The notes: generated by a model from the sequence alone, not told the origin. A stretch of DNA of 64,000 nt from an uncultured Thermoproteaceae archaeon (GCA_964575955.1 CAZNTG010000006.1:64001-128000); one strand, 5' to 3'; positions 4,076-22,314 are shown, counted from the stretch's first letter. Numbers and translations are program-made.

Positions 4076-5197
4076 ATGTCTCTGATAGAGAAGATTAAGC
4101 CAATGAGTATTGGTCAGGAAAGACTGCTAAATGCATTAATGGATGATAGAAATGAGATTGTTGGTGCTTTTGGACCAACTGGTACTGGTAAGTCACTACT
4201 ATCCTGTGCATATGGAATATCTGGAGTTTTAAGTGGTAAGTATAAGAAGTTTATTATCGCTAGACCTGTTGTTGATGTTACAACTGGAGAATTGATAACA
4301 CCTGAAAGACTTGGCGATCTATACTACAAGATTGCTTCATCATATCTAGAAGATATTCTTGGAGAATTCATGTCTCGTGATGAGATACTCAAACTACTTC
4401 ATGAAGGTAAGGTCATTGTAACTGATGTATCATATTTAAGAGGTAGAACATTTGACGATTCTGTAATATTTCTAGATGATGCACAAAATGTACAACCTGA
4501 AAGTGCTGCTGAGATCTTAATGAGAATTGGTAGAAATTCTAAATTAATAATTGCTGGTGATCCAGTATTACAGAAACCTGTAACATTTGAAAAAGATGGA
4601 GCAACTCTACTAAGAGAAGTATTACTTAATGAAGAAAATGCAGCAGTAATTGATCTAGGATTGAAGGATATTGTTAGACCTGGAGCTAGGAGAGGTGTAA
4701 AAGTAATATTTGAATTGAGAATGAGGAAGAGAGAATTGACAGAGAGTGAGAGACAACTACTAGACCTAGTTAAAGTATGTGCACCAGATGCAGATGTTGT
4801 AACAGTAATAGAGTTTAAAGCTGAAAAAGATAGTTTAGGAATAAAGTCTGAAAACGTACCTGATGCATTAATAATAGCGAAAGAGGGACATCTAGGTAGA
4901 GTTGTTGGTAAAGGTGGTGAGAGAATTAGAAGTGTTGAAAATGAGTCAGGACTAAGACTTAGAGTAGTTGAAATGACTCTAGACTTCAAGAATTGGATAA
5001 GAGCAATACACCCAGTATCATGGATTGGAAAACACATAATTGATGTAGATCTAGCAGGACCTGAACTAGTAGTAACAGTTAGAAGAAATGCATTTGGAAC
5101 ATTTGTAGGACAGAGAGGAATGTATGTTAGACTACTCGATAGAATATTTAAGAGATTAATAAACGTTGGTATTAGAGCTATGGAAAGTGAAGAGTAA
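4076..5197 (+). CDS. PhoH-family ATPase with C-terminal KH domains
   Basis: GPTGTGKS, YLRGRTF, DDAQN, GDPVLQ; KH GxxG loops GRVVGKGG and FVGQRG. Confidence 0.9.
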   Translation: MSLIEKIKPMSIGQERLLNALMDDRNEIVGAFGPTGTGKSLLSCAYGISGVLSGKYKKFIIARPVVDVTTGELITPERLGDLYYKIASSYLEDILGEFMSRDEILKLLHEGKVIVTDVSYLRGRTFDDSVIFLDDAQNVQPESAAEILMRIGRNSKLIIAGDPVLQKPVTFEKDGATLLREVLLNEENAAVIDLGLKDIVRPGARRGVKVIFELRMRKRELTESERQLLDLVKVCAPDADVVTVIEFKAEKDSLGIKSENVPDALIIAKEGHLGRVVGKGGERIRSVENESGLRLRVVEMTLDFKNWIRAIHPVSWIGKHIIDVDLAGPELVVTVRRNAFGTFVGQRGMYVRLLDRIFKRLINVGIRAMESEE

Positions 5198-11148: not shown

Positions 11149-11574
11149 TTAGCTAGATACATATCCCCTATATATTCCATAGTTCGTATATACAACAATA
11201 GTATACACATCATAACATTGAGAACCTTCAAAATATATACTCAATACCTGTCCAGGTCTTATCGTAATTGGAAGTTTTAATTTTTGATTATTTAGACTTA
11301 CACTAGATAATTCACAATTTGAAATCTCATTTCCTGAACTATCAAATAGTTTTATAGATTTAATACGAACTTCACCAACACCAATATTCCTGATATCTAC
11401 AATAAGCTTACTATTACCGATAAGATATCCATTAACTGCAATCTGCGCACTACTACTAATACCACCTGTCATTAATGTGTATATTATTGCACCTAGAGTT
11501 ACTGATGCTAAAATTCCAACAATAGCCCAAACTATATCTGATAATGCACCTCTTCTAGACTTTGATAGCTTCAT
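11149..11574 (-). CDS. Type IV pilin-like protein
   Basis: Class III signal peptide MKLSKSRRG/ALSDIVWAIVGILASV, then a hydrophobic helix and a beta-rich domain (IRNIG, IRPGQ). Confidence 0.8.
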   Translation of the reverse strand: MKLSKSRRGALSDIVWAIVGILASVTLGAIIYTLMTGGISSSAQIAVNGYLIGNSKLIVDIRNIGVGEVRIKSIKLFDSSGNEISNCELSSVSLNNQKLKLPITIRPGQVLSIYFEGSQCYDVYTIVVYTNYGIYRGYVSS

Positions 11575-15745: not shown

Positions 15746-15833
15746 GCGGGGGTGCCCGAGCCTGGCCAAAGGGGGCGGGTTGAGGTCCCGCTGGCGTAGG
15801 CCTGCGTGGGTTCAAATCCCACCCCCCGCACCA
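15746..15833 (+). tRNA. tRNA-Leu (anticodon GAG), intron-less, CCA encoded
   Basis: Acceptor GCGGGGG/CCCCCGC-A-CCA; anticodon arm GCGGG-TTGAGGT-CCCGC; long variable arm; T arm GTGGG-TTCAAAT-CCCAC. Confidence 0.97.
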
Positions 15834-17206
15834 GACCTATATACTATGTTTGTTATAACTTCTTCAGGTCTCTTATAGAATTCTGAGATTATACTGAGCT
15901 GTTGTGTATATGATTTTCTGACTAGATTTTTAATAATTTCTCTTCTATACTCAATCTCATCTCTAGGTATTTCTACACTATTTGGGATATATATATCTGA
16001 TACTTTTCTAATTTTTCTACAAATTCTAACACCATCTAGCTCAACTATTGTTGTACCTGTATGCATTTTAACTACAGCAATTTCTTTCAAAATATTTTGA
16101 CTATTTTCAATCATATTTGATAACCTCATTTTCAATTTATCATAACTATCTGCGTGAAATGTTGTAACACCACCATGACCTGTAGTTACGGCATCAATCC
16201 ATGCTTGAACTTCATCTCTAGTTCTAACCTCATTAACAATAATGTAGTCAGCACCTATTCTCAATGCATGAGCTATTAAATCTGACTTTGTAATTGATTT
16301 AACTCCAAGTCCATAGGATCTTCTTTCAATCAACTTAACAACATTATGACCAGGAAGTGTCATCTCATCAACATCCATTATCAATGCTTTAAATAGTGTT
16401 GGATTACTACAAAATGTTATTGCATTAGCTAGACTAGTCTTACCAGAACCCATAGGACCTATTATCAATATTGGTATCTTATTATCAAATAAATACCACA
16501 ATAATGCACATTGAGTAAAATCTACACTATCTCTAACAATAAGATCACCATAAGTCCAAGGACTTCTCGGTAAGATTCTAATATGTATGTAAGGTTCAGA
16601 TATTGGTTTTATCGAAATTGAAAATCTAACTCTAAACTCATGATCAGTAACTGATATCATAGGCATGTATGTTGTTATTGGACTACTAGATCTCTCAGCA
16701 ACACGAGAAATTACATATTCCAAAAAATCTTTAAGACTATATACCCTTCTATAAAGTCTATGCTTTACAAATTTAAGTATTGTAGATTTAAAATCTACGT
16801 ATGTATTTTCAAACTCAACATTAACTTCACAAAGACCGAAATCAGAATGATATGCATAGAAGTTTGATGTTGTTAAGTATATATCAGTAATCTTGTCATA
16901 TAATAATAATGGTGTTAAAATACCATAATATTTAAACCACCTAGTCCAAACTAAGCTAATATCCTCATAATTAACATTTAGAGATTTAGAAATTTTCTTA
17001 ATAATACTATCAACATCCTTACCTGAAATTACTAGACTATATATGAAATACGGATCTACATGTTGTATACCTTCATCAACATCATCATATAGATATATTA
17101 TGAATGTTGAACCTATCTGACGTATATCTATTATTGATCTAACTAGGAAATCTACAATAAAACTTTCAACAAGTTTACCATTAGGTTTTGACTTACTTAT
17201 AAGCAC
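15812..17206 (-). CDS. Type II/IV secretion ATPase (VirB11/TadA/FlaI-like)
   Basis: Walker A GPMGSGKTS, ALRIGADYIIVNEVR (Walker B), His box TGHGGVTTFHA. Confidence 0.9.
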   Translation of the reverse strand: MLISKSKPNGKLVESFIVDFLVRSIIDIRQIGSTFIIYLYDDVDEGIQHVDPYFIYSLVISGKDVDSIIKKISKSLNVNYEDISLVWTRWFKYYGILTPLLLYDKITDIYLTTSNFYAYHSDFGLCEVNVEFENTYVDFKSTILKFVKHRLYRRVYSLKDFLEYVISRVAERSSSPITTYMPMISVTDHEFRVRFSISIKPISEPYIHIRILPRSPWTYGDLIVRDSVDFTQCALLWYLFDNKIPILIIGPMGSGKTSLANAITFCSNPTLFKALIMDVDEMTLPGHNVVKLIERRSYGLGVKSITKSDLIAHALRIGADYIIVNEVRTRDEVQAWIDAVTTGHGGVTTFHADSYDKLKMRLSNMIENSQNILKEIAVVKMHTGTTIVELDGVRICRKIRKVSDIYIPNSVEIPRDEIEYRREIIKNLVRKSYTQQLSIISEFYKRPEEVITNIVYRSGAGGGI

Positions 17207-17351
17207 GTATAGTTACATATCTTAACATTACTAAATTCCAATCATATTGGGAGCTATAGAAACTCGATATAAATATTTAATGAGTATATACCTGATAGAA
17301 TAAGACTATTCAGGACGTACAAAAAAGATCATTGCATATCTTAAGTACTAA

Positions 17352-18077
17352 GTGGAAATATGTGAAACCATGAGTGTAAGACATAGATATAATATAACAA
17401 CATTTGACAATTTAGTATTAAGAACTTACAATCCAACAACATACATACCTCTCAATATTTGGGAAAGAATGTATAAGAGAGGAGAATTAACTATAAAGAG
17501 CTTAATAATACTTGGATGGAGAGTTAAATCATTAAGAGAGTGTAGACTATTTGGATTAGCATTCTCAGACTTACATGATCAGGATAGACTACTAGACATA
17601 GTATCGGTATTAGGTAACTATAAGAAGAGAGTTCATATAAAATTTACAAGTAGAGAATCGAGTATAGTATCAAAAATATATGAACAACATATAAGATATA
17701 GAACAACTATAAGCAATTACCTACTATATCTTTTTCTAACAGGATTTTATGCAAATTCAAGAGTAGTCACACATTACTCAAACTCGATAGATAGAATAAA
17801 ACTTGCATATGAGGATGAAAATATGCTTAAAGAAATGATGAAAACAGTGTTAAAAAACGTATTAAAAAATTATGAAGATATAGTGATATTTAAGAATAGG
17901 ATTATAACTGAATTATCGAGAACTCGTAGAAGGAGTACAATAAGGCATATTAAGAGAATTAATAATGAAAATGATAAAGAGAGATTGATATCATATATAT
18001 TAGACTCAGTGATATTTAATATAAAACCAGGAGCATTATTGAAGACCTATGTAAAAAACTGCATAGGATATGTATAG
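17352..18077 (+). CDS. Hypothetical basic protein (probable start ATG 17370)
   Basis: Long ORF; CTTAAGTA box at ~17340; overlaps the next gene. Confidence 0.65.
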   Translation: MEICETMSVRHRYNITTFDNLVLRTYNPTTYIPLNIWERMYKRGELTIKSLIILGWRVKSLRECRLFGLAFSDLHDQDRLLDIVSVLGNYKKRVHIKFTSRESSIVSKIYEQHIRYRTTISNYLLYLFLTGFYANSRVVTHYSNSIDRIKLAYEDENMLKEMMKTVLKNVLKNYEDIVIFKNRIITELSRTRRRSTIRHIKRINNENDKERLISYILDSVIFNIKPGALLKTYVKNCIGYV

Positions 18078-18459
18078 AATATTTTTAGCAATATCAGCTG
18101 AGAGTATAAGTAAGAATGTTATAGAACCATTCCTAAAATCTGCATACGACATCGTATCTATAATAGGTGGTTTAGCATTATGGGCTTTAATAATAATGTC
18201 TATAGTGAAGTTAATAGAGAGTAAACTCGGACCAACAGGTTGGTATAGATCTGCAGCTATGACAGGTCTATTTGAACTATTTAAGAGATTTCTAATAGCA
18301 ATAGCAATATTCTACGTAATAACATACATAATTGCATATATAATGAGCTCAATGGGTACAACTATAAATCCAACACAACTTGCAACAAACATCTTACTAA
18401 ACATGTTATTTAAACCATTCACAACACTGTACAAATATGTGATAAGTACAGGTAAATGA
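18070..18459 (+). CDS. Small two-TM membrane protein, putative VirB2/CedA1/TedC-like pilin
   Basis: Two hydrophobic helices separated by a short charged loop (KLIESKLGPTGWYRS). The function call is inference. Confidence 0.55.
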   Translation: MYRIFLAISAESISKNVIEPFLKSAYDIVSIIGGLALWALIIMSIVKLIESKLGPTGWYRSAAMTGLFELFKRFLIAIAIFYVITYIIAYIMSSMGTTINPTQLATNILLNMLFKPFTTLYKYVISTGK

Positions 18460-20933
18460 TATTACAGATAGCATTAGCGATAGAATTAACAATATTCACA
18501 ATACTCTACCTTAAGAATAGAAATCTTAGAGATATAAAGGATTTAGTAACAACAATAATATTAATATCAATAATAGTATTAATATCCTCAAACTACATAC
18601 TAAACTACTCTATATGCATTAAGAAGACTAGAGATATTATAGAAGTTTTAGAAAGTTGTTCAAAAATACTAAATTTAACAATATTAACATATTCTATTAG
18701 TCTCATACTACTTTCAATCTTAATATCTATAGTTCCTGTATTAAACATAGTTAATACTATATACCTATTTTACACATTACCACTAGGAAAGATTATAGAT
18801 CCTGTATTGAATAGTTTGATAATAATTTCAAACATTATACAACTTACACTAATAGTTCTAGTAGCAGAGCTAGATTTACTAATATTCTCTAAAGTAGCTT
18901 TAAAATATCTAATATTTCTACCACCTATATCATTAATAAGAAGATTAAAGATGCCGATAATTCTGATAGTGGTCTGCATACTCATAATTATAATATCAAC
19001 AGGATTGATATATAAGTCAGGAATATCGAAGATAAATCATAAAATTTTGAGAAAGATTAAGGATGAAATATTTAACATATCTAAATCTATCTCTAAAATC
19101 AGCATAGAGTATAGTAATATATCGATATTTAGATATATTTCAAATTATGGAGAGGTAAGTATCATATATATAAGATGTGGAAATTATGTAGATAGAGTAT
19201 TCGGTCTTGGAAATATTACGATTATATACAACTGTAGTAATGTAGGGCTTTTAAAAGCTTTCAAAATAGTGTTAAACTATAATGTAAGTAGTGAGATTTA
19301 TTGTAAGTATACTAAACATAGAAATATAACATACGTAGTATGTCATTCAAAATCCAAATTAAGACCTATAATCTATAGAAGATATCTTGTAGGATTACTT
19401 CATACCAACTGTTCTAAAGTATCTATAAAATTTATAGATAATATCACACTTATAGTCAGGAAACATCTAAATGCTTCATGTAGCGTAAATATAGTAGGTC
19501 CCTTCTCAGGTAGCGAAAATGTTCAATATAGTAATGTTCAATATAGTAAGATTGAGATACTGAGAAAAATTCTATATAAGATATATAATGTTGATAAGAT
19601 TGTAAATTATTACTATAATAAGAGTGTTGTAGATTTGAGAAAAATTCTAACATTAATACAGACTATAGACAATTTGAAGTACTATACTGTCAGGAAATTC
19701 ATTTTGCATAGAGATGTAGATAGTATATACATACATTTTCCAATTAGTAGAGCTGTGTTATGGCCTGTAAATATATCAACTATACCATATTCAAAATCTA
19801 TATATACATACTATAGATATCTCATAAACGTAAAGTCTGAATGTTCTAATATTTTGAAAACATTTAATTTCTATAAGTACTTCAATAATATTATAATCAT
19901 CTCACTATATTCACTATTCTTAACAATATTCTCAATAATTGCAGCAATGTACATATTGACAAATATCTTAAGTTTAGAAGGTATTGTTATATATCCTCTA
20001 ATTAAGTTTGGAAAAATATTACTATCTGAATTTTTAATACCTCTATACTTTAAGATTGCTAGTAAAGCTGTATCTAAGAAATTTATTAGAAGTATCTATA
20101 GAGCTTTCAAGAAAAGTGAAGGAATAGTAATTTTGGATAATTATCACAGAGTTGAGAATGTATTGAAGACGTATCACCATAGATATAGGGTTGAAGGTCT
20201 TTATACAATTTCAAATTATGCTAGAAGAAGATTATCAAAATATATCGATAGGAGAGTACTGTATGAAATTGAAAATAGGAGGATGCCAATTCTATATTTG
20301 AAGAACTTAGATATAAAGAAGAAAGATTACCAAACTAAGATTATTATTGAAGATATTATGAAAAATCTTGGTATATCTATTGAACTTTTATCAGACTTCT
20401 CAATTAGGAGATTTGAAAGACTTGATAGACTATCTAAATATGTATTATCAACATATATAAATGTTTCTAGAGGATTCAGATACTACAATATTATAGACTT
20501 ATCTATTGATATGAGATTAACACCATACCATATATTGTTACTATCATTAGACAGAGATGTTATTACTAATGTCTTACGGAGGTTAAATCTTTATGATATG
20601 TTTAAGGATTATCTTGATGTTAATAGAGATTTTATATTTAGCAAGTTTAGGACCTACATTTATGATCTATATTATGCATCATTATTAACATCTAGAATTA
20701 TACATAGGAGAGTTACTGGTTCTATAATTTTGAGTTTGTTAAAATATTCTGACTTAGATAGATCTCTATATGTTAGAGAGGTTAAGAACATTTTAAGATA
20801 TCATATTGATTTTGATGTTGTTAAGAAAATATTAGATGAGTATTTGAGAGAGGTTTATACTAGATATTCTGGTAGTTTTAGAAGGAGAGAATTGTATAAG
20901 GTTAATATTTTAAGAAGGTTATTTAATGTTTAG
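18456..20933 (+). CDS. Large multi-TM membrane protein (possible CedA/TedA/VirB6-like)
   Basis: Several TM segments in the first ~185 aa, a central N/Y/S/C-rich domain with NxS/T sequons, further TM near aa 480-520 and a basic C-terminal domain; ATGA overlap with the upstream gene. Confidence 0.55.
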   Translation: MILQIALAIELTIFTILYLKNRNLRDIKDLVTTIILISIIVLISSNYILNYSICIKKTRDIIEVLESCSKILNLTILTYSISLILLSILISIVPVLNIVNTIYLFYTLPLGKIIDPVLNSLIIISNIIQLTLIVLVAELDLLIFSKVALKYLIFLPPISLIRRLKMPIILIVVCILIIIISTGLIYKSGISKINHKILRKIKDEIFNISKSISKISIEYSNISIFRYISNYGEVSIIYIRCGNYVDRVFGLGNITIIYNCSNVGLLKAFKIVLNYNVSSEIYCKYTKHRNITYVVCHSKSKLRPIIYRRYLVGLLHTNCSKVSIKFIDNITLIVRKHLNASCSVNIVGPFSGSENVQYSNVQYSKIEILRKILYKIYNVDKIVNYYYNKSVVDLRKILTLIQTIDNLKYYTVRKFILHRDVDSIYIHFPISRAVLWPVNISTIPYSKSIYTYYRYLINVKSECSNILKTFNFYKYFNNIIIISLYSLFLTIFSIIAAMYILTNILSLEGIVIYPLIKFGKILLSEFLIPLYFKIASKAVSKKFIRSIYRAFKKSEGIVILDNYHRVENVLKTYHHRYRVEGLYTISNYARRRLSKYIDRRVLYEIENRRMPILYLKNLDIKKKDYQTKIIIEDIMKNLGISIELLSDFSIRRFERLDRLSKYVLSTYINVSRGFRYYNIIDLSIDMRLTPYHILLLSLDRDVITNVLRRLNLYDMFKDYLDVNRDFIFSKFRTYIYDLYYASLLTSRIIHRRVTGSIILSLLKYSDLDRSLYVREVKNILRYHIDFDVVKKILDEYLREVYTRYSGSFRRRELYKVNILRRLFNV

Positions 20934-20936
20934 TTG

Positions 20937-20984
20937 ATGATGAGTCTTCAGCCGAATGATTGGTGATTTGAGGCTGTTTGCTGA
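20937..20984 (+). ncRNA. box C/D guide sRNA (probable tRNA-Phe C32 guide)
   Basis: ATGATGA-gtcttcagccga-ATGA-ttgg-TGATTT-gaggctgtttg-CTGA, intergenic. Confidence 0.72.
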
Positions 20985-20990
20985 TCATGA

Positions 20991-22031
20991 TTATACTCTT
21001 ATGACTATTTCCAACTTATCTAATATTTCTTGATATCTTTGTCTAATTGTTACATCTGATTTTCCTGTTGCTTGTGATACTTCTTTCTGTTTTCTCTTAG
21101 TGTTAACTATGTTTACGGCTATGTATATTGCTGCTGCAGCTATTGCATATTTATCTTTTCCATTTGTGAGTCTTATTTTTCTACATGCATCTATGATGTT
21201 CCATGTAAGCTTCATTATTGGTGGTCTTAGGTCTGATGGAACTTCAAGTTTGTCTAATACTGTAGATATGTATCTTCTGATTTCAGCCTCATTTATAACT
21301 GATGTTTGAATGTTTATTCCTGAGCTTGCTAGTATTGATTTTATTTCTGTTAAAATTTTTGCAAGTCTTCTTCTATCGACATTAAATTCTGTTAATATTT
21401 CTTTAATTCTAAATCCTAAACCTCTATTTTTACATGCTACGTATAGTAGGGCTGCTGCAAGTTCTCTTAATCTATACATCCTCTTCTTTCTCTCAGGTAT
21501 CTTACCTTCTTTCACTGCTTTAGCGATATGTCTATACATGTGTATTACATCATCGATTATGCTTGATGGTAATCCAAGTTTTTGTACAACATTCTTAACA
21601 TATCTTTGAAGTGTTACAACATTTCTCTCAGTACTTGTAACTCTAAGTCTCTGGTGAATTATGCTAAGTCTTTCAAGTACTGATCTCATCTTAATGTTTT
21701 GTGATACTTTTGTTACATCAATCTCATCTTGTCCAAGTCCTTGATTTGGATATTTTATGTCAGTCTTGTATAGTCTTTCTTTTTCTTCAGCTTCTTCAGG
21801 TGTGTATACTCTATATTCTGGTCTTGTTATATCTGGTATTTTTTCAACAATTATTGAGCCACACTGTGTACATACTACCTGTCCATTTCGATAATCAAAT
21901 ATTATTTTTGGACATCCACAGTATGGACATCTTGTCAATTCTTCAATATTTACAACAGTTTCAGTCTTCTCCTTATCTTTATGTAACTTCTTTCTTAGGT
22001 ATTCAAATTTTGAAATTTTTTCATCAATCAT
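20991..22031 (-). CDS. tfb: Transcription initiation factor IIB (divergent, TFB2-like)
   Basis: Zn ribbon CPYCG...CTQCG; two cyclin repeats (AAALLYVAC, AAAAIYIA, SDVTIRQRY). Start placed at ATG 22031 behind GGAG. Confidence 0.93.
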   Translation of the reverse strand: MIDEKISKFEYLRKKLHKDKEKTETVVNIEELTRCPYCGCPKIIFDYRNGQVVCTQCGSIIVEKIPDITRPEYRVYTPEEAEEKERLYKTDIKYPNQGLGQDEIDVTKVSQNIKMRSVLERLSIIHQRLRVTSTERNVVTLQRYVKNVVQKLGLPSSIIDDVIHMYRHIAKAVKEGKIPERKKRMYRLRELAAALLYVACKNRGLGFRIKEILTEFNVDRRRLAKILTEIKSILASSGINIQTSVINEAEIRRYISTVLDKLEVPSDLRPPIMKLTWNIIDACRKIRLTNGKDKYAIAAAAIYIAVNIVNTKRKQKEVSQATGKSDVTIRQRYQEILDKLEIVIRV

Positions 22032-22032
22032 A

Positions 22033-22314
22033 CTATCTCCTCTTTCTTGTTCTTGATTTTTCAAGATCAAGTACTCTTACATATACTGCTTTACCTTTAA
22101 ACTTTTCTGGATCTTCAAGAACATTTCTGTCAGGTTTTACTAAGCCAAATGGGCTTGATACAGGTCCAATAACATCATATAGAATTCCTAATCTCTTCAT
22201 AGCGTAGTCATATACTGTGATGTAGAGTGGTGGTACCATGCTTAATTTAATTACAAGCTTCTTATCGTGTGAAAGATGAAGAACTTCACCTATCTTCTTC
22301 AATGATGTAGACAT
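22033..22314 (-). CDS. gar1: H/ACA RNP protein Gar1
   Basis: IGEVLHLS...LGILYDVIGPVSSPFGLVKP; gar1-tfb linkage. Confidence 0.88.
   Translation of the reverse strand: MSTSLKKIGEVLHLSHDKKLVIKLSMVPPLYITVYDYAMKRLGILYDVIGPVSSPFGLVKPDRNVLEDPEKFKGKAVYVRVLDLEKSRTRKRR

Follow-up and report, generated by a model that had tools for sequence, protein, structure and literature searches.

Whether a secretion-type ATPase that stands back to back with a membrane-protein operon works together with that operon or serves another machine is the question raised by a stretch of DNA from an uncultured archaeon of the family Thermoproteaceae. The stretch, referred to here as the window, comprises 64,000 nucleotides (nt) and corresponds to positions 64001-128000 of contig C6 in a genome (G000) of 1.52 Mb, assembled in 15 contigs and 94.7% complete. 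The gene for the ATPase, of 464 amino acids (aa), occupies positions 15812-17206 on the minus strand and is separated by a divergent intergenic region of 145 bp (17207-17351) from three plus-strand genes, which overlap by 8 and 4 nt and encode a protein of 241 aa (p241; 17352-18077), a protein of 129 aa (18070-18459) and a large polytopic membrane protein of 825 aa (p825; 18456-20933). An earlier reading of this block, made from the sequence only, had described the four open reading frames (ORFs), their overlaps, the AT-rich composition, the adjoining tRNA-Leu and an inverted repeat at 17291-17314, all of which were found to be as claimed. It had furthermore proposed that the block encodes a DNA-transfer module, similar to the archaeal Ced or Ted systems, that is coupled to a VirB11-type ATPase. 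The comparative analysis presented here upholds the relationship with Ted (Thermoproteales exchange of DNA) and assigns the ATPase differently: it appears rather probable that two machines meet at this locus, the pilin operon of a Ted system (p241-tedC-p825) being divergent from the gene for the motor ATPase of a type IV pilus-like system, most likely of subclade 4G.

The comparisons cover a sample of 62 genomes of the order, of which 31, G000 included, belong to the family of the window (f1), while 29 and 2 belong to two other families (f2 and f3, respectively). Within f1, the genus of the window is designated g1 and four other genera are designated g2 to g5.

The Ted pilin operon and its divergent ATPase

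With regard to the 129-aa protein, Pfam, NCBIfam and PHROGs return no match. A profile built from seven of its homologues (A1) matches chain 8dft_A when compared with the PDB, with an E-value of 0.001 (22.2 bits over 92 positions), the next match lying at E 0.79. The 8DFT entry is a pilus of Pyrobaculum calidifontis, the subunit of which is TedC, encoded by Pcal_0765 (Beltran et al. 2023, PMC9905601). As described previously, the 129-aa protein has two hydrophobic helices, at residues 24-42 and 66-84; an N-terminal hydrophobic leader of the Sec type is not obvious by eye. Profile A1 matches 33 of the 62 genomes, namely G000 and 22 of the other 30 genomes of f1, 10 of the 29 of f2 (with E-values of 1e-10 to 1e-14) and neither of the two of f3, and it finds a single copy in G000. 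Some of the f2 matches fall on the N-terminal part of a longer, TedA-like ORF, which fits the published remark that CedA starts with a CedA1-like region (PMC9905601). As judged by these profile comparisons, the 129-aa protein is orthologous to TedC, which is the Ted system's VirB2-like pilin, and is predicted to assemble into a pilus, and the description of the operon as Ted-like is borne out because of this orthology.

The Ted system has been described as the pilin TedC together with TedA, a VirB6/CedA-like protein with seven transmembrane (TM) helices encoded downstream of tedC, and the VirB4-like TedB; ParA/MinD, a HerA-like helicase and Rad50 are commonly associated with them, and in some species Ted parts are encoded at distal loci (PMC9905601). 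Orthologues of TedC, TedA, TedB and ParA/MinD are all present in G000, where distal loci are likewise found. TedB, of 696 aa, is encoded at C10:7752-9842 (phmmer E 1e-85 to 1e-90) and contains the Pfam domains DUF87, AAA_10, TrwB and TraG P-loop, its best NCBIfam matches, all below cut-off, being CedD and VirB4-like models. Upstream of it lie two small genes and a ParA/MinD gene (C10:6281-7078; Pfam CbiA/ParA), which is the one close ParA/MinD orthologue in G000 (E 4e-27, the next paralogues being at 1e-6). A jackhmmer search started from the product of the gene after tedC at an f2 locus, a 304-aa protein with seven TM helices, gathered a TedA family member of 269 aa at C7:114759-115568, as well as a 294-aa gene adjoining tedC in g5. 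The resulting TedA profile (A5) confirms the gene on C7 at E 2.5e-86 and finds TedA in 31 of the 62 genomes (20 of 30 in f1 and 10 of 29 in f2); compared with PDB sequences by HMMER, it gives no match. TedA and TedB are thus both encoded in G000, neither of them inside the block, and its Ted system is dispersed, with TedA on C7 and ParA/MinD, the two small genes and TedB on C10. The sequence-only reading had left open whether the ATPase of the block acts instead of a VirB4-type ATPase or as well as one, and had suggested a genome search for VirB4 or CedB; with the VirB4-like TedB found on C10, the second version stands and the first does not. A HerA-like ATPase of 653 aa is also found on C7, within a series of large genes (806, 426 and 469 aa) at C7:78896-85999, which looks like a Rad50-Mre11-HerA-NurA repair operon, a type of operon that the Ted paper ties to DNA exchange (PMC9905601).

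Despite this shared parts list, the block differs from the published Ted loci in that tedC is followed by the gene for p825, which is confined to f1, and not by that for TedA with its seven TM helices, in that the FlaI-type ATPase discussed below is its divergent neighbour, and in that p241 leads the operon. p241 remains an orphan. It is basic, as described previously (pI 9.8), and its real start may be the ATG at 17370; the structure/feature atlas holds its sequence from residue 7 on. Its orthologues are limited to five loci of the genus, and no match was obtained with Pfam, NCBIfam or PHROGs. A search of the atlas gave nothing above noise (feature scores of at most 0.86 and TM-scores of at most 0.38), and HHalign comparisons with 17 other locus-associated families did not exceed 1.1%.

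The ATPase, in turn, belongs to the T2SSE family (PF00437, E 5.3e-20; 71.8 bits, with a cut-off of 24.9), and its Walker A motif (GPMGSGKTS), Walker B glutamate and His box are intact and align with those of FlaI. The NCBIfam models all score below their cut-offs, in the order BasE (92 bits), FlaI (89), TadA (78) and VirB11 (74), and those for VirB11 remain far below theirs (TIGR02788, 74.1 bits against 249.95; PRK13900, 44.7 against 389). In the comparison with solved structures, FlaI (E 9.3e-21) and the Archaeoglobus GspE (2OAP; 5e-20) come first, followed by CpaF (3e-13), PilT (2e-6) and VirB11 (1e-5). Although the VirB11 of bacterial VirB/D4 type IV secretion systems (T4SSs) and the ATPase of the window share one superfamily, the earlier assignment to VirB11 is not sustained, and in terms of sequence similarity the ATPase is of the FlaI/TadA type. 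At a threshold of E <= 1e-30, its orthologues are found in 25 of the 62 genomes, that is, in G000 and 24 of the other 30 of f1, and in none of the 29 of f2 or the two of f3. The source names of its closest matches are Caldivirga and Thermocladium.

At the loci of g4 and g5, the immediate neighbour of the ATPase gene is a gene for a protein of 337-382 aa with 4-7 predicted TM helices, designated V382, for which a count of 6-7 TM helices was also obtained. The V382 profile matches 26 of the 62 genomes, all of them, as for the ATPase, in f1: 25 of the 31 f1 genomes have both proteins, one has only a 48-aa remnant of V382 and five have neither, and both are absent from the 29 f2 and the two f3 genomes. 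In G000, V382 is encoded at C6:371516-372661, divergently from three prepilin-type genes of 121-137 aa (the whole spanning C6:371516-373943), so that V382 and most of the prepilin-like genes lie approximately 290 kb from the ATPase. A feature search of the atlas with V382 reached a score of 0.92 with 187 shared features, and 26 of 30 matches fall in Thermoproteota clusters in which 12-21% of the members carry PF00482; a word-indexed homologue search returned three proteins only. On the basis of these comparisons, V382 looks like a diverged TadC-like platform protein and a putative partner of the ATPase. The two PF00482 genes of G000 flank another ATPase, at C6:44024. Adjoining the platform-like gene is a gene for a 111-aa protein (C6:371092-371427; positions 1093-1428 of locus L137) that has no Pfam match, and whose relatives are proteins of about 190 aa encoded directly upstream of tedC in f2 loci and also found at loci L100 and L101. 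Some genomes of g5 and g2 (G042, G010, G013 and G017) carry the ATPase/platform module, whole or in fragments, twice or many times over, with 11 platform matches in G042, several of them with stops, which may reflect mobility, decay or a fragmented assembly.

The prepilin-type N-termini (such as SRG|ISS, CRG|ISS and RRG|ALS) are each followed by a hydrophobic helix, an arrangement that we take to be a class III signal-peptide motif. A fourth prepilin-like gene lies in the window itself, at 11149-11574 on the minus strand; its 141-aa product combines a basic N-terminal stretch, RRG|ALS and a hydrophobic helix, and matches one-helix proteins of 142-149 aa encoded beside ATPase/platform genes in g5 (phmmer E 1e-12 to 1e-18), with no match in Pfam or NCBIfam. 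Below threshold, the prepilin-like genes match the TIGR02537 archaellin/pilin N-terminal domain (16.7 bits, cut-off 20) and BasA (25 bits). A prepilin peptidase is encoded at C6:501196-501453 (PF01478, 39.5 bits). The genome would therefore appear to hold a pilus-type ATPase with a TadC-like partner and prepilin-like genes elsewhere, which is the ordinary alternative that the sequence-only reading had set against its own proposal.

The literature on archaeal pili contains a system with a similar gene content. In the Thermoproteales, subclade 4G combines an ATPase and a TadC, both diverged, with PilA-family pilins and a FleN/MinD ATPase (Makarova 2016, PMC4858521), much like the ATPase/V382/pilin set of G000. 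For Caldivirga maquilingensis, the supplement of that census lists arCOG10359, annotated as 'TadC/FlaJ family, subclade_4G' and with six TM helices; a FlaI-family ATPase beside the seryl-tRNA synthetase (SerRS) and a 96-aa pilin; arCOG10497 (885 nt, five TM helices); and arCOG10500 (405 nt, two TM helices), which is directly followed by arCOG13765 (3291 nt, five TM helices), labelled 'CorA-like' and placed outside the system (PMC4858521). In Pyrobaculum 1860, arCOG10500 and arCOG10497 are adjacent (PMC4858521), as are tedC and tedA in f2. At three g2 loci (L052, L098 and L157), the genes for V382, the ATPase, TedA, TedC and the p825 family match the Caldivirga genes in size, order and neighbours. 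Because of this match with arCOG10500 and arCOG10497, the TedC and TedA families seem to have been catalogued in 2016 as pilus accessories, the authors having taken the two membrane proteins as parts of the pilus before Ted was known. As assigned by gene content and by the Caldivirga entries, and not by a tree, the ATPase, V382 and the prepilin-like genes most likely constitute a subclade 4G pilus system.

The identification of the TedC and TedA families with the 'accessory membrane proteins' of the 4G census joins two literatures that do not cite each other here. The MinD/ParA family has been given both to 4G pili (PMC4858521; PMC13705601) and to Ted (PMC9905601). The terms 'arCOG', 'T4P' and 'VirB11' are absent from the text, as distinct from the figures, of PMC9905601, and a 2026 census that lists 4G with a MinD-like ATPase contains no mention of Ted (PMC13705601). 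More generally, no text that joins 4G and Ted or names the p825 family was found in a search that left subscription journals and the figures of PMC9905601 outside. A 2025 study describes the Thermoproteales as lacking Ups and suggests that they may pair through the Ted pili themselves (PMC11823120).

The large membrane protein downstream of tedC

The locus also brings out a family of large membrane proteins, represented here by p825, the gene for which is found immediately downstream of tedC in 16 of the 21 genomes where the two occur. In agreement with its earlier description as a multi-TM protein with an exposed domain and a basic tail, p825 contains approximately seven TM helices (residues 1-181), a sequon-rich domain (216-445), two further TM helices (476-516) and a basic C-terminal part of 270 aa (556-825, pI 9.8). 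The 230 residues from 216 to 445 hold 10 of the 14 N-glycosylation sequons together with six cysteines. This segment is predicted to be an exposed, glycosylated beta domain of immunoglobulin (Ig)-like fold, and residues 556-825 are predicted to form a basic, helical cytoplasmic domain.

A search with the single p825 sequence finds relatives in its own genus only (5 of 41 genomes, G000 included). In HHalign comparisons, the family of the genus aligns with long multi-TM proteins of other genera at 97.9-98.7%, with E-values of 5e-13 to 4e-16 over 733-755 columns; the partners are the proteins encoded after tedC in g2 (1101 aa), g4 (914 aa) and g3 (1240 aa) and, in g5, long proteins inside Ted clusters. 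A HMMER scan of 1.84 billion representative proteins with the joint profile returned 26 proteins only at E <= 0.001. The family occurs in 22 of the 62 genomes of the order, all of which belong to f1. Within the 31 f1 genomes, 21 have both tedC and a p825-family gene, seven have neither, two have tedC only (G020, where tedC is at the start of a contig, and G044, where the match is weak) and one has the p825 family only (G002, at a contig break). In g5, the p825-family gene is found 4.6-16 kb from tedC or on fragmented contigs. This restriction to f1 and the co-location with tedC argue for the p825 family as a family-specific companion of TedC.

Database comparisons provide few indications of its function. 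p825 has no match in Pfam, NCBIfam or PHROGs, and none of 13 members of the family that were scanned reaches a Pfam cut-off or presents a CorA domain; for the 12 of these other than p825, Pfam gave only two sub-threshold matches at chance level, one HepT-like and one to DUF4131. The latter falls on residues 153-231 of member P0037 (E 0.0046; 17 bits, cut-off 31.6) and was seen in no other member; DUF4131 is the N-terminal domain of ComEC competence proteins. Comparison of the p825-family profile (A3) with the PDB by HMMER gave four matches only, at E >= 0.25.

The sequence-only reading had likened p825 to TedA, CedA and VirB6. As a TedA/CedA counterpart p825 was rejected, since the orthologue of TedA is the gene on C7 described above, which also means that the true TedA does not lie in the block. 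A relationship with VirB6 is more difficult to judge. The AlphaFold2 (AF2) model of p825, computed from a 22-row alignment, has a predicted local distance difference test (pLDDT) score of 73.8 and a predicted template modelling (pTM) score of 0.45, and begins with a bundle of helices, followed by a beta domain (222-347), additional helices and, at the C-terminus, a helical domain that is modelled with confidence. In a VIA-align comparison of the full model with 48,161 chains, 7o3v_F comes first (Z 10.1, root-mean-square deviation (rmsd) 7.0 Å, 217 of 261 residues), with the next entries at Z 9.3 and with the reservation that matches between helical bundles under about Z 13 may be generic. In a second run, 8rt9_F comes first (Z 9.7, 216 of 272 residues), 1.8 above the next entry; the two runs are not independent, because both use the same p825 model. 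Chain F of these two structures of the VirB5-VirB6 stalk of R388 is deduced from residue numbering to be VirB6 (TrwI) and not VirB5: residues 23-33 of VirB5 are built only in the later stalk entry (PMC11294453), and the match to the earlier entry already starts at residue 23. On the sequence side, HHalign gives a weak alignment of the N-terminal domain of p825 with TedA (25%, E 7.6e-4; controls 0.1-0.3%), the core of which is an R-x-R motif after a TM helix, while the whole of p825 gives 0.2%.

Two structural searches speak against the relationship. Foldseek, which the earlier reading had put forward as the way to detect it, finds nothing in the PDB at E <= 0.001, the best E-values being 0.15 for full p825 and 0.58 for the model of the N-terminal domain. 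Moreover, when residues 1-218 are folded alone (pLDDT 77.8), they form long hairpins for which VIA-align ranks generic long-helix proteins at the top (IpaB, Z 8.9), with no VirB6 among 50 entries. The match of the full TM core to VirB6 thus falls within the noise expected of helical bundles and is gone in the model of the N-terminal domain, so that the likeness claimed earlier has not been reproduced beyond weak hints. Membership of the p825 core in the VirB6 superfamily is accordingly put forward here as a tentative placement, possible rather than probable. With regard to the beta domain, residues 219-302 align with Ig/CnaB-type domains of SpaC, RrgB and PitA (Z 5.2-6.4, rmsd 2.5-2.8 Å over 73-77 residues), a modest but repeated hint that the model contains an adhesin-like ectodomain.

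Linkage of the Ted and pilus genes

Conservation of the neighbourhood was one of the checks proposed by the sequence-only reading, and the linkage of the ATPase with tedC does hold across the genus and appears again in further genera. Of the f1 genomes, 22 have both genes, and in 10 of these the two are within 10 kb of each other, with a distribution that varies between genera: 6 of 6 genomes in g1, 1 of 1 in g3, 1 of 6 in g2, none of 4 in g4 and 2 of 5 in g5. The case in g3 rests on a distant ATPase (33% identity), and that in g2 is a second copy on contig G017:C34. At two g5 loci (L055 and L056), a Ted operon of TedA, TedC, ParA, two small genes and TedB is interrupted by a pilus module, which consists of three prepilin-like genes, V382 and the ATPase. 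At L057-L059, the pilus module is again accompanied by ParA and the small genes, TedA, TedC and TedB being absent; conversely, L101 and L102 contain Ted without the pilus module. This recurrent co-location is a matter of observation, as are the gene identities and phyletic patterns described above.

A similar division of labour is known from the Sulfolobales, where the Ups type IV pilus provides species-specific contact and Ced acts as a T4SS-derived importer. Ced comprises a VirB2-like pilin, a VirB6-like channel and a VirB4-like ATPase. In the explanation favoured here, p241-tedC-p825 would be the pilin operon of the dispersed Ted system, and p825 a lineage-specific membrane partner, acting where the pilus has its base or in cell-cell recognition, whose TM core may be VirB6-like and may carry an exposed, glycosylated Ig-like domain and a basic cytoplasmic one. 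The divergent ATPase would be the assembly motor of the type IV pilus-like system, with its platform, pilins and peptidase encoded elsewhere on C6, and the shared promoter region might co-regulate the ATPase and the Ted operon. The pilus would then make the contact between cells and Ted would move the DNA, as Ups and Ced do; the pairing proposed for G000 would be the same in function, with no claim that its genes are orthologous in sequence to those of Ups or Ced. The description of Ted in 2023 drew on a single pilus structure and on gene neighbourhoods, and both its full parts list and the way in which cells pair before transfer are still open in the field. Should the pilus and Ted cooperate, the family would supply a second example of the Ups/Ced logic, independent of the first; otherwise, the block would simply be the Ted pilin operon of an uncultured genus.

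Besides the structural searches with p825, several results weigh against this explanation. V382 does not match PF00482, nor does Pfam return anything relevant for it at E <= 5, and HHalign comparisons of V382 with local T2SSF alignments gave 3.3% and 0.2%, when a control pair gave 100%. The ATPase of G008, the genome behind the g3 case, is distant (E 1e-31, 33% identity), and all of the genome counts come from related genomes, which are not independent trials. Signs against an obligate tie between the two systems are provided by G019, a 99% complete genome in which TedB, TedC, TedA and the p825 family are present and the ATPase and V382 are absent, as well as by the 10 Ted-bearing genomes of f2, all of which lack this ATPase clade. 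Conversely, G013, also 99% complete, has the ATPase, V382 and a TedB-like gene of 26% identity, with no match to tedC, tedA or the p825 family. Furthermore, the ATPase, the platform gene and tedC are mostly dispersed in g2 and g4. The argument for cooperation consists of recurrent and varied co-location together with shared accessory genes, all of it drawn from gene neighbourhoods; weighing both sides, cooperation of the pilus with Ted seems plausible while falling a little short of probable.

The explanation that survives best after the favoured one is that the pilus ATPase and the Ted operon are mere neighbours, unrelated in function and brought together by historical accident, within a lineage where the genes of both lie scattered. 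The absence of linkage in 5 of 6 g2 genomes and in all four of g4, the distance in G000 from the ATPase to its platform gene and to most of the pilin genes, the occurrence of each system without the other in some genomes and the lack of conservation of the right arm of the inverted repeat in the intergenic region would all be expected under it. It accounts less well for co-location that is seen in four genera and takes several forms (divergent in g1, embedded in g5 and clustered on G017:C34 and G008:C17), for the MinD/ParA gene and two small-protein families that flank both the pilus-only and the Ted-only loci of g5, and for the small family found beside tedC in f2 Ted loci, a homologue of which adjoins V382 in G000. 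Such an accident is regarded here as unlikely, though not strikingly so.

A similarly doubtful standing is given to a view that goes further than the favoured one, namely that 4G and Ted form one composite exchange apparatus, in which they would share MinD/ParA, the pilus would make the contact and p825 would be an extended VirB6-like protein with a fast-evolving Ig-like ectodomain that specifies the partner. If this were true, the p825 family would represent a previously unrecognised extended VirB6-like component. In its boldest form, the FlaI-type ATPase would also help to assemble the VirB2-like Ted pilus.

A direct role of the ATPase in Ted is the claim closest to that of the sequence-only reading. 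In this hybrid machine, the ATPase would be a VirB11-like Ted motor that docks on p825 and helps to assemble the TedC pilus or to move DNA, in keeping with the back-to-back genes and their shared 145-bp intergenic region, which accompany each other in the six genomes of the genus that have both, with the position of the ATPase inside the Ted operons at L055 and L056, and with the confinement of both the ATPase clade and the p825 family to f1. VirB11 and pilus ATPases are also members of one superfamily, and the 74 bits obtained with TIGR02788 compare with the 89-92 bits of FlaI and BasE, all of them below cut-off. Nevertheless, the distance to solved VirB11 (E 1e-5) is much larger than that to FlaI (E 9e-21), the ATPase tracks V382 and the prepilin-like genes, and the ATPase and V382 occur in G013 and G024 with no tedC, tedA or p825-family match. 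A VirB11-driven Ted machine is unlikely because Ted exists without this ATPase, in G019 together with the p825 family and in the 10 f2 genomes mentioned above. We therefore hold the hybrid machine to be improbable, and direct driving of the Ted pilus by a FlaI-type ATPase would come as a surprise.

Recent insertion of the block as a mobile element was rejected because of its synteny. The genes that border it in the window, for GatD (E 1e-246 to 1e-250) and transcription factor B (TFB; E 1e-169 to 1e-171), enclose all four genes in G001 and G004 as well; in G003, the block is beside TFB, and in G005 and G006 the same genes are present as far as the ends of the contigs. That the block is the remnant of a conjugative element integrated at tRNA-Leu is very improbable, for although it is AT-rich, abuts a tRNA gene and encodes fast-diverging proteins, and pilus-module copies are multiple in some g5 genomes, it sits between housekeeping genes in these relatives, contains no integrase or relaxase domain that Pfam, NCBIfam or PHROGs would detect, and belongs to a Ted system whose other parts are chromosomal and dispersed. 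Neither a flanking attachment (att) repeat of the tRNA 3' end nor close strains without the block were seen, no search dedicated to att repeats having been made. The same three databases gave no TadC/FlaJ domain in the block either, so that the earlier statement that TadC/FlaJ, integrase and relaxase are missing from it is accurate.

The intergenic region and the flanks of the block

The intergenic region at 17207-17351 contains A/T-rich, TATA-like stretches and the imperfect inverted repeat cctgatag/ctattcagg (17291-17314), the arms of which pair only with a bulge of one base, so that a gapless repeat finder missed it. In a comparison of five orthologous intergenic regions, the left arm is invariant in its CCTGA (17291-17295) alone, and the right arm is not conserved. 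A ATTGGGAGCC(A/T)TAGA box upstream of CCTGA is common to the window, G001 and G004 (alignment A7). From their sequence, this box and CCTGA may be regarded as candidate operator or promoter elements, and the shared region presumably has a promoter role. The G+C content is 0.24-0.30 over positions 16500-20999 and 0.31-0.38 in the flanks. The proteins of the block have diverged at unequal rates: the identity of their relatives to the protein of the window is 52-61% for the ATPase, 41-63% for the 129-aa protein and 21-31% for the 825-aa protein.

On the side of the ATPase, the block is bordered by tRNA-Leu(GAG) at 15746-15833 on the plus strand (ARAGORN; Rfam RF00005, 49.5 bits), which is convergent with the ATPase ORF and overlaps its 3' end by 22 nt (15812-15833). 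The same abutment is found in G003 and G006, the tRNA of the latter having the anticodon CAG (overlap at 4220-4241 of locus L049). In G001, G004 and G002, the ATPase and the tRNA are separated by an extra gene, whose product has 326-527 aa and 1-2 TM helices.

On the opposite side, a C/D-box-like element (C box ATGATGA, D box CTGA; plus strand) was identified by direct reading at 20934-20990, in the 57-nt gap between the 825-aa gene and that for TFB. Of the three relatives aligned, G001 and G004 have a nearly identical copy and G003 lacks it. The sequence-only reading had called it a C/D small RNA; Rfam at its gathering score finds only the tRNA. It lies outside the machine. The TFB gene that follows (20991-22070, minus strand), syntenic in the genus, is full length and converges on the 825-aa gene; its product contains a Zn ribbon, two cyclin repeats and an N-terminal extension. 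In the Sulfolobales, a TFB paralogue, TFB3, controls both Ups and Ced. A TFIIB gene has also been noted in pilus operons of subclade 4D (Makarova 2016, PMC4858521).

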